Assembly: GCA_964370265.1 (NCBI GenBank)
Contig: CAYJIP010000004.1
Coordinates: 13,465 to 77,464, forward strand
DNA length: 64,000 nt
Origin: an uncultured Clostridium sp.
GTDB lineage: Bacteria; Bacillota; Clostridia; TANB77; CAG-508
Direction of reading: 5' to 3'
Numbering within the stretch: the first letter of the stretch is position 1; each line of letters opens with the position of its first letter. The position numbers were made by a program, and so were the translations under genes. The notes under the pieces are model-generated. The model saw nothing but the letters and a program-made list of their open reading frames with translations. It searched no databases and had not been told where the DNA came from. This document shows, piece by piece, positions 4,394-64,000 of the stretch.

Positions 4394-5896
4394 ATGAAAG
4401 AAACAAGAAAAACAAAGTTAAAACAATCTAATGGTATTACATTAATAAGTCTTGTAATAACAATAATTGTACTTCTAATATTAGCAGGAGTATCAATAGC
4501 AATGTTAACAGGAGAAAATGGAATATTAACACAAGCAACAAATGCAGGAGAAGAAACAGAAGAAAGTACAGCAAAAGAAAAGTTATTAATGGCATTAAAT
4601 GAATATCAAATTCAAAAATACACACCAAATTCTAAAGATATAGTAGAATTTTTAGAAGACCATGTAGATGGATTTGATGTAGAAGGAACTACATCACCAT
4701 ATGATGTCTTTATAGATGGATATATGGGAGAAGTAGAAGAAAACGGAGATTTTGATGAAGACACATTTGGGATAGCTGGACCAAGACCAACTATATCAAA
4801 CATATCAATAACAACAGATGGAACAACAGTACCAACAGACAATTCATTAGAATTAGGAACACCAGTACAAGTAACATTTGATAGTACAATAGAAGGTGGA
4901 ACAATAAAATCAGTAACACCAAGTGTACCATATACAACAAATGGAACAGATATGGAAATAACATTTACAATAGTAGGAACAGTAAATGGAGTAGATTATA
5001 CAAAAAAACAAACAGTAACATTAACAGATAAATATGAAAAACAAGTAGTAGCATTTTCAGAAACAGAAAATGTAGTAATACAAGATGATTTAGGAAATGA
5101 CATAAAAGTACCAGCTGGATTTGGATTAGCAAAAGATTCAGGAAAAGATATAACAGAAGGAATAGTTATAGAAGAAGCTGGAGTACCAGGTGGAGGAAAT
5201 CAATTTGTATGGGTACCAGTTAATGATGTAATTATTGATAGTGCAGGAACAACAAAAAATATACAATTATCAAGATATGAATTCAGCTCAACAGGAGCAG
5301 CAACAATAAAAGGAAATGAAGATATTATAGGATCATACTATAAAGAAACTACAGAAGGAAGAGGAAATGCAGTTGCAACAGACTTAAATGACTTTATAAC
5401 AAAAACAAATCAAGCAGGAGGATATTATATAGCAAGATATGAAGCAAGTAGTAGTGATGGAACTCAAAGCGGAACAGCAGAAAGTAAAGAAAATAAGACA
5501 GGATGGGCAGAAATAACACAACCTAATGCAGCAACAGCCGCAAAAACAATGTATACTAGTAGTTTATATACAACAGACCTTGTTAATTCATTAGCATGGG
5601 ATACAGCACTTGTATATATACAAACAATAAGTACAGATACAAATTATTCAATACAAACAGCAATGGATGACGGATTACAACTTACAGGGAATTCAGGTGA
5701 TGAAATATTGAAAATAAATGATATGGCATCAAATCTAAGAGAATGGAGTACAGAAACTTCCGCTTATTCAGAACATCCGTGTATTCATAGAGGAGGTACT
5801 TATTACAATGATTTTTTTCCTTCTAGCTTCAGATTCTATGACCGTACTAGCCTCAGCCATACCACCTTCTCTTTTCGCCCAATATTATACCTCTAA
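4394..5896 (+). CDS. Prepilin-like N-terminal domain protein (paralog 1) with an FGE-sulfatase/C-type-lectin-like C-terminal domain
   Basis: The N-terminus MKETRKTKLKQSNG|ITLISLVITIIVLLILAGVSIAMLTGENGILTQA has a prepilin-type G|xTLI cleavage motif and a 20-residue hydrophobic helix, but Ser replaces Glu5. The C-terminus carries FGE-family motifs: GYYIARYEAS, SNLREWS, HRGGTY and the terminal FRPIL. The last ~140 bp have atypical C-ending codons. Confidence 0.6.
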   Translation: MKETRKTKLKQSNGITLISLVITIIVLLILAGVSIAMLTGENGILTQATNAGEETEESTAKEKLLMALNEYQIQKYTPNSKDIVEFLEDHVDGFDVEGTTSPYDVFIDGYMGEVEENGDFDEDTFGIAGPRPTISNISITTDGTTVPTDNSLELGTPVQVTFDSTIEGGTIKSVTPSVPYTTNGTDMEITFTIVGTVNGVDYTKKQTVTLTDKYEKQVVAFSETENVVIQDDLGNDIKVPAGFGLAKDSGKDITEGIVIEEAGVPGGGNQFVWVPVNDVIIDSAGTTKNIQLSRYEFSSTGAATIKGNEDIIGSYYKETTEGRGNAVATDLNDFITKTNQAGGYYIARYEASSSDGTQSGTAESKENKTGWAEITQPNAATAAKTMYTSSLYTTDLVNSLAWDTALVYIQTISTDTNYSIQTAMDDGLQLTGNSGDEILKINDMASNLREWSTETSAYSEHPCIHRGGTYYNDFFPSSFRFYDRTSLSHTTFSFRPILYL

Positions 5897-5990
5897 AACT
5901 GAATGCTAAAACCGTGATTTAGAAATAACTAAAGAATAGTTTTGGATAAATAAAAATGAATATTAAAGTGAGTATTTTGAGAATGCTATG

Positions 5991-10638: not shown

Positions 10639-10992
10639 TTAATAGTTAAAATAATCATCATAATCGTAATCATAGTCATAATAATCGTAATCATAGTCAT
10701 AATCATCATATACTGAATCTGAATAATTAGCTAGAATAACCCAAAATGCTGTAGAAAAAATAATTATAATAAGTGAAATTACTGATAATACTAAACCAAC
10801 AATTCCCATTGCAATTCCTTCTTTTTGTGCGTTTTGTTCTGTAAGTTCTTTATTCTTTTTATTTGTTGTAACTATACCTACAATACCTAATATAGCTCCT
10901 ATTAAAGCTGGTAAAAAAGCTATTGTGTTACAAAATGGTATAAAAGATACTAATATAGATATTATACCTAATACTAATGCTGCTACTTGCAT
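10639..10992 (-). CDS. DUF4190-like small membrane protein with a C-terminal (DY)n repeat tail
   Basis: Two to three TM helices (LVLGIISILVSF..., GIVGLVLSVISL...) are followed by a C-terminal DYDYDYDYYDYDYDYDDY tail. That tail is encoded by a ~6-12 bp tandem DNA repeat at about 10640-10700. Confidence 0.55.
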   Translation of the reverse strand: MQVAALVLGIISILVSFIPFCNTIAFLPALIGAILGIVGIVTTNKKNKELTEQNAQKEGIAMGIVGLVLSVISLIIIIFSTAFWVILANYSDSVYDDYDYDYDYYDYDYDYDDYFNY

Positions 10993-26064: not shown

Positions 26065-27237
26065 ATGAAAATAAAAGGGAATAAAGGTATAACATTAATT
26101 AGTTTAGTAATAACAATTATTGTACTATTAATATTAGCAGGAATAAGTATAGCTATGCTAACAGGAGAAAGTGGAATATTAACACAAGCAGATAAAGCAA
26201 CAGAAGCAACAAGAGGTGGAGATGTTGATGAAACTTTAAGAATGTGGGAATATAGTACAGAATTAGAAAAATATACGGATAGAAATGATGAAATATCTTT
26301 AAGTGAACAATTAGATGAATTAGTAGCAAAAGGGAAATTAACACCAGAAGAGAGAGTAGAATTAGAAGCTAATAAAAAAGTAGAGATAGGTGGAATTTTG
26401 GTAAGATTACCAAATGTTGAAGAAAATGATGGTAATGATAAGATATATTTAGGTGACCTTCCAGAGGGAACAAAAGTTATGTATAATAATATAGAATGGG
26501 CTATTTTATATGATGGCGAAAATGGTGATCCATTTACAAATAAAGTTGAATTAGTATCAACAGATGCACTGGATGAAATTAATTTGGATAGTAATACATA
26601 TACTACGGAAGAATTGAAAAACAATTATAGAAAAGCTATCGAAATTCTAAATGGTTCAGTTCAACAATATAATTTAGGAGATGCTTTAAGTGTAAGGCAT
26701 GTTGGTACAGATCCAACAAATCCAAATGCATATGCAATGATAGGTGAACAATACGTTGATTATTATGATATACCGGACGATATGGTTTTTGAACGTGACA
26801 CGAATGAAAATGGTTATATATATAGATATGGAGAATTAAATAGTGCTAATTTTGTAGGATTGGAGCAAATAGTACAAAATCATCATGAAACAGATATTAA
26901 TAAATTAAAAACAATAGATGTAGATGGTGAAAATATGTATGATATTGATGGACAATCATATTTTCTAGGAAGCAGAACAGCTACAGTGCAATACGGGAAA
27001 ATGGTATATAGTTCAGGTCAGGAAGAAGTAAGTACTGATTTGAGATATTTCTGTTTGAGATATAAATATGAAAATGATGAAGAACTTAGAAATGTAACTA
27101 TTGCAACATATGGAAAAGCATCAGCGTCAGTGAGTGGAAGACCAGGTACACCAATGTTAAGGCCAGTAATTGCGTTTTCACCAGATAAAGAAGTTGAATT
27201 AGATACAGTAAATGCAGATACATATATATTTAAATAA
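26065..27237 (+). CDS. Prepilin-like N-terminal domain protein (paralog 2)
   Basis: The N-terminus MKIKGNKG|ITLISLVITIIVLLILAGISIAMLTGESGILTQA is near-identical to paralogs 1 and 3. The C-terminal 340 aa are unrelated. It starts 49 nt downstream of the SecF-like gene. Confidence 0.6.
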   Translation: MKIKGNKGITLISLVITIIVLLILAGISIAMLTGESGILTQADKATEATRGGDVDETLRMWEYSTELEKYTDRNDEISLSEQLDELVAKGKLTPEERVELEANKKVEIGGILVRLPNVEENDGNDKIYLGDLPEGTKVMYNNIEWAILYDGENGDPFTNKVELVSTDALDEINLDSNTYTTEELKNNYRKAIEILNGSVQQYNLGDALSVRHVGTDPTNPNAYAMIGEQYVDYYDIPDDMVFERDTNENGYIYRYGELNSANFVGLEQIVQNHHETDINKLKTIDVDGENMYDIDGQSYFLGSRTATVQYGKMVYSSGQEEVSTDLRYFCLRYKYENDEELRNVTIATYGKASASVSGRPGTPMLRPVIAFSPDKEVELDTVNADTYIFK

Positions 27238-63346: not shown

Positions 63347-64000
63347 ATGGCAAATAAAATAGAGAAAATAGACAATAAAAAAATATATGTAGAAAGTATA
63401 AATAATCAAGGGATTACATTAATTTCAGTTGTAATAACAATAATTGTATTATTAATTTTGACATCTGTTTCAATTGCATTGCTTTTAGGAGAAACGGGAA
63501 TTTTAAATCAGGCAAACAAAGCTAAAATTATATCAGAATTTTCATCATATGAGGAAGCTATGAAATTAGTAGAAGCAGATGATGTTATGAATGATTTAAT
63601 AGAAGGAAAGAAACAAACATCTTTAAGATATAATATATATAGTGGACAAGAGTTAGCAAAAATATTACCCAATGTAGAACAAGAGATAATGGATAGAATA
63701 ATGTATATTGATGGAGAAATGATATATATTGCAGATGAAATAAATCAAGATGTAATTGAGATTGAAAATGCCGGATATCAAATAATCTTAAAAGAAGACG
63801 TTAACTATAGAATAGAATTAGAGATGATAGAAAATTTAGTAGAATTAACAAACATATATGGATATGAGCAAATAGGAAAGCAAATAGAAACAATATATTA
63901 TCCAAATAGTGTATATGTAGGTTTAAATAAATTTGGAGCAGGATGGAATATACTTGGTAATGGTGATACAAGTAGTGAAAATACAAATATAATAAAAGAA
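63347..64000 (+). CDS. Prepilin-like N-terminal domain protein (paralog 3; 3' partial, runs off the window)
   Basis: It reads MANKIEKIDNKKIYVESINNQG|ITLISVVITIIVLLILTSVSIALLLGETGILNQA. No stop occurs through 64000 (218 codons). It is not in the ORF track because it is open-ended. Confidence 0.55.
   Translation, partial: MANKIEKIDNKKIYVESINNQGITLISVVITIIVLLILTSVSIALLLGETGILNQANKAKIISEFSSYEEAMKLVEADDVMNDLIEGKKQTSLRYNIYSGQELAKILPNVEQEIMDRIMYIDGEMIYIADEINQDVIEIENAGYQIILKEDVNYRIELEMIENLVELTNIYGYEQIGKQIETIYYPNSVYVGLNKFGAGWNILGNGDTSSENTNIIKE

Follow-up and report, generated by a model that had tools for sequence, protein, structure and literature searches.

Synonymous codon switch in the tail of a pilin-like gene of an uncultured Clostridium suggests a variable region served by a remote diversity-generating retroelement

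In this study, we describe a gene for a pilin-like surface protein in a 64,000-nucleotide stretch of DNA from an uncultured Clostridium sp. (contig CAYJIP010000004.1 of assembly GCA_964370265.1, positions 13,465 to 77,464); this whole stretch is referred to as the window, and all positions are those of the window unless stated otherwise. The gene changes its base composition and codon usage abruptly close to its 3' end. Our findings support that the last ~135 nucleotides of the gene (~5752-5887) are probably the variable region (VR) of a remote target of a diversity-generating retroelement (DGR) located elsewhere in the genome. The gene and its features are as follows.

4394-5896, + strand: open reading frame (ORF) for a pilin-like surface protein, a predicted DGR target ("variable protein"); the product is database protein P0001 of 500 residues
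4430-4492, + strand: pilin-like hydrophobic N-terminal segment NGITLISLVITIIVLLILAGV, resembling a class III signal peptide/pilin helix, with Ser and not Glu at +5
5036-5893, + strand: predicted FGE-type C-type-lectin-fold domain, residues 215-500, based on an AlphaFold2 (AF2) model, Foldseek, and Pfam matches in relatives
5752-5887, + strand: predicted VR, with boundaries carried over from the verified template repeat (TR)/VR pair of the related loci L026 and L027
5789-5797, + strand: conserved RGG scaffold codons within the VR (alignments A1 and A4), corresponding to AGA GGT GGT of the L026 TR
5870-5881, + strand: S-F-R-P scaffold codons TCT TTT CGC CCA, the GC-richest 3' end of the VR, at a position like that of an initiation of mutagenic homing (IMH) site; the TR/VR homology of the relatives ends there
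5892-5923 (arms 5892-5897 and 5918-5923), no strand assigned: weak AT-rich inverted repeat TCTAAA/TTTAGA with a loop of 20 and one G-C pair, lying across the stop codon
5897-5922, + strand: the 26 nucleotides right after the stop codon, AACTGAATGCTAAAACCGTGATTTAG, identical by eye at 19 of 26 positions to AACTGGACGCTCAAGCCGTAACTTAA of the L002 group of relatives

A first-pass annotation made from the letters of the sequence had drawn attention to the tail of this gene, claiming that 14 of the last 32 codons are C-ending, that such codons are missing from the start of the gene, and that the tail is poor in A. On recounting, all of this was reproduced: the 14 codons are exactly those that had been listed, none of the first 32 codons ends in C, and the A content is 0.26 in the tail compared with 0.46 in the head, while the C content is 0.26 compared with 0.13. 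From 5753 to the stop codon, 15 of the 47 codons are C-ending and nine are A-ending, whereas the first 453 codons include 17 that are C-ending and 299 that are A-ending. The GC content of the tail (0.36-0.37) is slightly above that of the rest of the gene; in positions 5800-5899, the AT skew is negative and the GC skew reaches values down to -0.57. Based on the 40 non-overlapping ORFs of the window, C occupies the third position in 4.2% of 16,509 codons, and among 15,269 sliding segments of 32 codons, those with at least 10 C-ending codons were found solely in this gene tail, with the maximum of 14 reached once. The shift is evident within single amino acids: Thr is encoded by 56 ACA and 5 ACT codons in the head and by no ACA, three ACT, and two ACC codons in the tail. 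Tail and head differ in the use of C versus T among pyrimidine-ending codons (Fisher p = 5e-4) and, more strongly, in the use of pyrimidine- versus purine-ending codons (Fisher p = 9e-11), the former amounting to ~30% in the head. Because of the Thr codons (ACA 56:0) and the Fisher tests, we conclude that the shift lies in synonymous codon choice and is not an artefact of amino acid content. Altogether, this confirms that the anomaly is real, far beyond chance, and the most extreme in the window.

The anomalous segment encodes the end of the domain in which DGR target proteins carry their variable residues. An AF2 model of the C-terminal 286 residues (215-500) has a predicted local distance difference test score of 84.8 and a predicted template modeling score of 0.88, and the top Foldseek matches in the PDB are Mtd (1yu2), ToxD, TvpA (2y3c), FGE, and TaqVP (5vf4), with E = 3e-4 to 4e-3; the sequence identity to Mtd, TvpA, and TaqVP is just 8-13%. 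Pfam family PF03781 (FGE-sulfatase) matches 68 of 97 family members. Based on the model, the C-terminal domain is predicted to have the FGE/C-type-lectin (CLec) fold, which is a feature of DGR targets. The motifs NLREWS, RGGTY, and FRPILYL that had been reported for the protein tail are all there; alignment A1 (23 sequences) shows no variation at R466, G467, and G468, and in alignment A4 (97 sequences) the conservation of R466 and G467 is 90% or more. The family is large, with E ≤ 0.001 for 7,879 of 8,000 scored candidates.

At the other end, the N-terminus of the 500-residue protein reads NGITLISLVITIIVLLILAG and resembles a type IV pilin signal and helix. In the signal region (NG, then ITLISLVITIIVLLILAG), the Gly and the helix are kept, while the conserved Glu at +5 is replaced by Ser (Ala in relatives); because of this replacement, we refer to the protein as pilin-like and not as a proven pilin. 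Pfam N_methyl scores the protein itself at E = 0.09 (12.8 bits versus a cut-off of 21.2) and matches 94 of 97 family members, the best with 4e-4. With the family profile, the PilA-N "geopilin" N-terminus was retrieved from the PDB with E = 0.0017, and the match to MshA was not significant (E = 0.41). In the window, we noticed no prepilin peptidase and no genes for the assembly of pili. In the full-length structural model, the middle part forms beta-sandwiches, and we suggest that it may consist of immunoglobulin (Ig)-like spacer domains.

Homologues from gut metagenomes provide a precedent for a diversified tail. The proteins of one such group (P0033 group) are ~45% identical to the window protein and mutually near-identical except at set positions of the tail, which follows the pattern NVxEWTTETSSxSxxPCVxRGGxYxxSxYYTSxRxYxxTSLSxxxxGFRPLLYL. 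In five alleles of this group, the variable codons are NNC or NNT with a fixed third base, and A is present in 40 of 50 variable columns. Similarly, in three otherwise near-identical genes (L002, L006, and L007), variation is restricted to the last 180 nucleotides, with 41 variable sites, and to a mosaic block in the middle of the gene. The tails of L002 and L003 are hypervariable, and their complete 10-kb flanks contain neither a reverse transcriptase (RT) gene nor a TR; the family thus includes remote targets. The mid-gene hotspot (nucleotide columns 900-1140 of the L002/L006/L007 alignment) has its counterpart in residues 301-325 of the window protein compared with a paralogue described below; with few discrete haplotypes and indels, it looks like recombinational mosaicism and less like DGR mutagenesis.

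By placing A at the variable sites of the VR alleles and translating the result, we obtained a predicted TR that was used as a query (A3). This query retrieved short ORFs reading NSNNPCVNRGGNYNNSNNYTANRNNNN, which directly follow RVT_1 genes and have bAvd nearby; locus L018 also has a 459-residue member of the family. The predicted TR is thus borne out by real TRs beside bAvd and a DGR-type RT. In L026-L028, the cassette consists, in this order, of a gene for a 409-residue family member, a MutS_I-like ORF, bAvd, a 335-residue RT, the TR, and an 87-residue ORF, and the surroundings are chromosomal (polA, spoIIM, and rny). The cassette RT (P0160) has the motifs IGNYTSQ and YLDD. Over 105 nucleotides of the TR and the VR of L026 and L027, all 65 non-A positions are identical and the differences fall at adenines alone, 20 of the 40 TR adenines being changed in the VR of L026 and 14 of 40 in that of L027 (20 and 26 retained, respectively). 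Because the differences are confined to adenines, L026 and L027 display the defining DGR signature. All three samples L026-L028 share one and the same TR, but L026 and L027 have different VRs.

The cassettes have further components. An element of ~80 nucleotides directly 3' of the TR, GCTCTAATATTATTCGAGATTATATATTTTAAGGAATATATACAGTG..TATTAGATATTAAAGGGATTTATTCCTTCC (GATTATATRTTTTAMGGAATATATACA...TATTAGATATTAAAGG), is conserved among cassettes with RTs of only 56-94% identity, and it may be the spacer of the DGR RNA that primes cDNA synthesis. Two accessory ORFs accompany the cassettes; to our knowledge, neither is a standard DGR component. The positions of these components in the relatives are as follows.

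L026 11195-11290, L018 8935-9030, L020 780-880, L029 1465-1560: ~80-nucleotide element 3' of the TR, with short inverted repeats inside
L026 11409-11672, L020 1124-1438, L018 9248-9571: ORF of 87-107 residues after the TR (orf87), MNLVIV.G..V..VEFKFIY.RY..., with no Pfam match on record
L026 9188-9625: ORF of 145 residues with a MutS_I match, between the target gene and bAvd

Some of these loci carry assembly errors. In L019 (ena:ERZ27236831:k141_867833), the Nextera adapter CTGTCTCTTATACACATCT occurs four times (at 23, 2673, 3540, and 4056); this public contig is a chimeric assembly, and the "SNF2_assoc" ORF beside its RT fragment is an artefact of the join. L017 and L018 have frameshifts in the RT and the TR, as is usual for uncorrected long-read assemblies.

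The tail of the window gene maps onto the verified TR. Anchored on PC..RGG, it matches the L026 TR in length as far as the SFR codons, and all 15 AAY codons of this TR, which is heterologous and not a TR of this genome, are NNY in the window tail (eight with T and seven with C). Of the scaffold codons, 8 of 20 are identical to those of the L026 TR (TGT, AGA, GGT, AGC, AGC, ACC, TCT, and CGC), among them AGC, ACC, and CGC, which are locally rare. The boundaries of the predicted VR were placed at the "TE" codons and ~8 nucleotides beyond the FR codons. The composition switch starts at the T-E codons (5750-5755), where the TR/VR homology starts in L027; at the 3' end, the TR and the VR of L026 both read TCT TTC CGC CTC CAG CT before they diverge, the window gene has TCT TTT CGC at the same place, and its TTTCGCC stands at the position homologous to the IMH-like end of the VR. 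The tail matches the L026 TR at only 41 of 65 non-A positions, on which basis we reject this TR as the donor of the window tail; another, related TR must therefore be the cognate one. The L029 TR was likewise rejected as the cognate of the window tail, and the L026 TR was rejected as the donor of the VRs of the L002 group because of non-A differences such as GGT versus GGA/GGC.

A homologue search returned P0001 as a 100% match and P0002, an 81%-identical paralogue of 508 residues; both are recorded on a contig of 109,782 nucleotides, and by tblastn P0002 is not encoded in the window. The two proteins are 100% identical over residues 151-300, have a divergent block at residues 301-325, and are 44-56% identical over the last 50 residues; in the tail of P0002, the scaffold is kept and most variable positions differ from those of P0001. 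The closest relatives that were retrieved otherwise are two tandem genes (L001; GCA_964371215.1), whose products are 54-55% identical to the window protein. We looked for identical C-rich tails in orthologues, which the first-pass annotation had named as a sign of ordinary conserved sequence; instead, the L001 tails are AT-rich and ordinary, with a C content of 0.10-0.11 and AGA, AAT, and GAT codons, arguing that the C-rich tail is not a conserved sequence of the family.

Downstream of the predicted VR, the comparison is less clear. The 26 nucleotides after the stop codon are 73% identical to L002 11540-11565, although the proteins share only ~45% identity and the genes that follow are not the same (trpS in the window, dut in L002); the mismatches are mostly G/C in L002 versus A/T in the window gene. 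This segment could be a retrohoming or a terminator element, decayed or not. The inverted repeat across the stop codon has a fold z-score of -0.03. At the 3' VR boundary of the relatives, inverted repeats contain GC (CGTCCA/TGGACG in L002, CAGCTTT/AAAGCTG in L026, and TCAGC/GCTGA in L018), and alleles of the L008 type, like the window gene, have no GC-containing repeat there.

Elsewhere in the window, two further genes share the pilin-like N-terminus: one at 63347-64000 (+; N-terminus with GITLISVVITIIVLLIL), which runs off the end of the window, and one at 26065-27237 (+; 390 residues; N-terminus with KGITLISLVITIIVLLILAG), which has neither an FGE-type tail nor a C-rich 3' end. Thus, the genome encodes a whole repertoire of these proteins, and not all of them are of the DGR type. 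A small predicted membrane protein encoded at 10639-10992 (-) ends in the Asp/Tyr repeat DDYDYDYDYYDYDYDYDDYFNY, and a search of the window with Rfam returned two tRNAs only.

Several results weigh against our interpretation. An ungapped, adenine-tolerant scan of the window for a TR (110-nucleotide tail and 40-nucleotide sub-segments on both strands) performed no better than with shuffled sequence; a YxDD motif of an RT is absent from all six frames; tblastn of the window with the L026 RT, bAvd, the MutS_I-like ORF, and orf87 gave nothing below E = 0.9; and no copy of the ~80-nucleotide element that follows the TR in the cassettes was detected there at up to three mismatches. These scans bear out the earlier statement that neither an RT nor a TR similar to the tail lies within the 64 kb, and they mean that adenine-only mismatches between the TR and the VR, which define a DGR, are for the window gene a prediction, with the cognate TR and RT expected outside the window. 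Moreover, the only proteins more than 55% identical to the window protein are P0001 and P0002, no other strain being represented in the databases. The 3' halves of these two are only 72-80% identical overall, and part of the divergence of their tails may therefore be ordinary. Pfam FGE-sulfatase does not match the 500-residue protein itself, and the AT-rich repeat could correspond to the GC-containing repeats of the relatives but is not convincing as such.

The absence of a cassette for at least 4 kb on the upstream and 58 kb on the downstream side of the gene is a weak counter-argument, because L002 and L003 are remote targets. Larger collections were searched as well: an RT search gave no match on the source contig among the best 120, all at least 73% identical to the query; in the genome-contig collection, a protein scan found no relative and a degenerate VR/TR pattern had 0 matches; and two VR/TR patterns had 0 matches in the viral-contig collection. 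An RT scan of the viral contigs yielded relatives of only 56% and 36% identity, so that close relatives of the P0160 RT clade are missing from these contigs; the contexts in which cassettes of this clade were seen are chromosomal. A TR-ORF profile run against 1.84 billion representatives recovered many TR-like ORFs of other DGRs and none with the scaffold ..PSS.R....T..S...SFRPILYL.

With regard to fold and codon architecture, the gene has the properties of a DGR target, and the proposal of the first-pass annotation that a VR lies in the FGE/C-type-lectin tail is supported by the predicted fold, the cassettes of the relatives, the hypervariable tails of homologues, and the codon-for-codon match to a TR. 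In the mechanism that we envision, the pilin-like N-terminal helix would anchor the protein in the membrane or a pilus-like fiber and the C-terminal FGE-type C-type-lectin domain would bind a ligand. A cassette outside the window would supply bAvd, an RT with the IGNYTSQ motif, and a TR rich in AAC and AAT codons; this cognate TR is expected to be ~135 nucleotides long and of the form CCNTGT.TTAATAGAGGAGGTAAT...ACTAGCAACAGCAATACCAAC...TCTTTTCGCC. The TR RNA would be copied into cDNA with misincorporation opposite adenines only, and the cDNA would replace the VR, turning AAY codons into NNY codons and leaving the adenine-free scaffold codons unchanged. Adenine depletion, C- and T-ending codons, and a strand-asymmetric skew in a genome of 26% GC with mostly A-ending codons would follow from this mechanism. 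We infer that the genome carries such a cassette, that it serves both the window gene and P0002 remotely, and that it is still active.

Among the alternatives, we consider it possible but rather doubtful that the tail is a relic, i.e., that a DGR in an ancestor wrote it, that the cassette has since been lost, and that AT-biased mutation has acted too briefly to erase the signature. A loss of the cassette would fit the lack of any of its components within 64 kb, and decay would fit both the AT-rich sequence found where the relatives have a GC-containing inverted repeat at the edge of the VR and the differences from the L002-type downstream element, which are mostly from G/C to A/T; L001 also shows that family members without the signature exist. 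However, the persistence of 14 C-ending codons among 32 in a genome with 4.2% of such codons argues for recent writing, and the two intact paralogues have different tails on the same scaffold. In this family, it is normal for a target to lie more than 10 kb away from any RT, so that the absence of a cassette says little; moreover, this absence covers 64 kb, while ~46 kb of the contig and the other contigs lie beyond. An active remote target is favored over a relic, but it is not proven. That the tail was imported by recombination from a related strain or a paralogue with a DGR-diversified copy, the locus itself never having been a target of retrohoming, appears improbable to us. The family is mosaic, with a mid-gene block that differs between otherwise identical genes, and the identity of P0001 and P0002 moves from 100% to 24-80% along their length, as expected for such exchange; yet the anomaly begins where the TR/VR homology of L026/L027 starts and not at a mosaic breakpoint farther upstream, a DGR in a very close relative would still be needed, and no donor-like sequence was found among 5.8 billion proteins.

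We give similarly little weight to the idea of an orphan VR, in which the genome would have no DGR of its own and the tails of the gene and its paralogue would be kept diversified in trans by the cassette of a mobile element or a co-resident relative, or by recombination with DGR-written alleles of the population, or to its more modest variant, in which a single chromosomal DGR would have many scattered targets, this gene among them, and would diversify the tips of a whole repertoire of pilin-like adhesins in a gut bacterium with a small genome. An ordinary origin of the tail, be it from amino acid content, local codon selection, or generic foreign DNA, is strongly disfavored and in our view highly improbable. 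It is true that the tail is rich in Ser, Thr, Phe, and Tyr and that its GC content of 0.36-0.37 is little above that of the remainder of the gene. But the shift is synonymous, as seen from the Thr codons and the preference for pyrimidine endings; foreign DNA of higher GC content does not explain the strand asymmetry; the segment is the sole one of its kind in 16,509 codons; and it maps codon for codon on the AAY positions of a verified TR.

Our preferred interpretation, a VR that is written from a remote cassette, places the window protein beside known DGR systems. Both the proposed mechanism and the predicted fold are known from classical DGR variable proteins, Mtd, TvpA, and TaqVP among them. 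In TvpA of Treponema denticola, Mtd of Bordetella phage BPP-1, and TaqVP, the VR likewise lies in the last ~45 codons of an FGE/CLec fold, with the variable residues between the scaffold motifs ..EW.., RGG, and GFR/SFR. TvpA is a lipoprotein and Mtd forms the tip of a phage tail fiber; in contrast to both, the window protein has a pilin-like helix and predicted Ig-like domains, and no cassette adjoins its gene. The closest parallel is provided by the gut cassettes of the P0160 clade (L026-L028 and L017-L020), whose target belongs to the same family (37% identical over the C-terminal 296 residues), has the same VR length and scaffold, and is served by a TR of AAY design that is mirrored by the NNY codons of the window gene. 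However, these targets have 409-459 residues and are encoded directly upstream of bAvd-RT-TR, whereas the window gene encodes 500 residues without an adjoining cassette. In its distance from an RT and a TR, the gene resembles remote targets such as L002 and L003. Remote targets can be sought with the DGRscan-remote option in myDGR (PMC6602519), and contig-based surveys state that they are missed (PMC8144416); they are defined, however, from a TR of the same genome, while the TR of the window gene is predicted only.

A pilin-like N-terminal architecture is unusual for a DGR target but not unheard of. One survey lists a "G-type pilin" among the rare domains that bear a VR (PMC11661182), and gut Bacteroides have DGR-diversified type V pilus adhesins (bioRxiv 10.1101/2024.11.15.621889). 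As in those adhesins, the DGR would diversify the region with which a pilus-associated protein on the surface of a gut bacterium binds its ligand; the window host differs in its low GC content, in that the loci of its relatives contain sporulation genes, and in that the N-terminus resembles type IV and not type V pilins. The family of the window protein itself is not described in the DGR and pilus literature compared here.

In broader terms, the analysis suggests that a DGR target may be recognized from raw sequence by its footprint of adenine-depleted, pyrimidine-ending codons, even when the RT and the TR are far away. The results further draw attention to a large family of pilin-like surface proteins in low-GC gut bacteria, with more than 7,800 database relatives, whose ligand-binding tips may be diversified by DGRs; the P0160 RT alone appears in 124 indexed blocks of the collection, and its clade is very common in gut metagenomes. 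If these proteins are pilus-borne adhesins, they would represent a type IV-like counterpart to the DGR-diversified type V pilus adhesins of Bacteroides and would offer a handle on how uncultured gut bacteria vary the specificity of their attachment.

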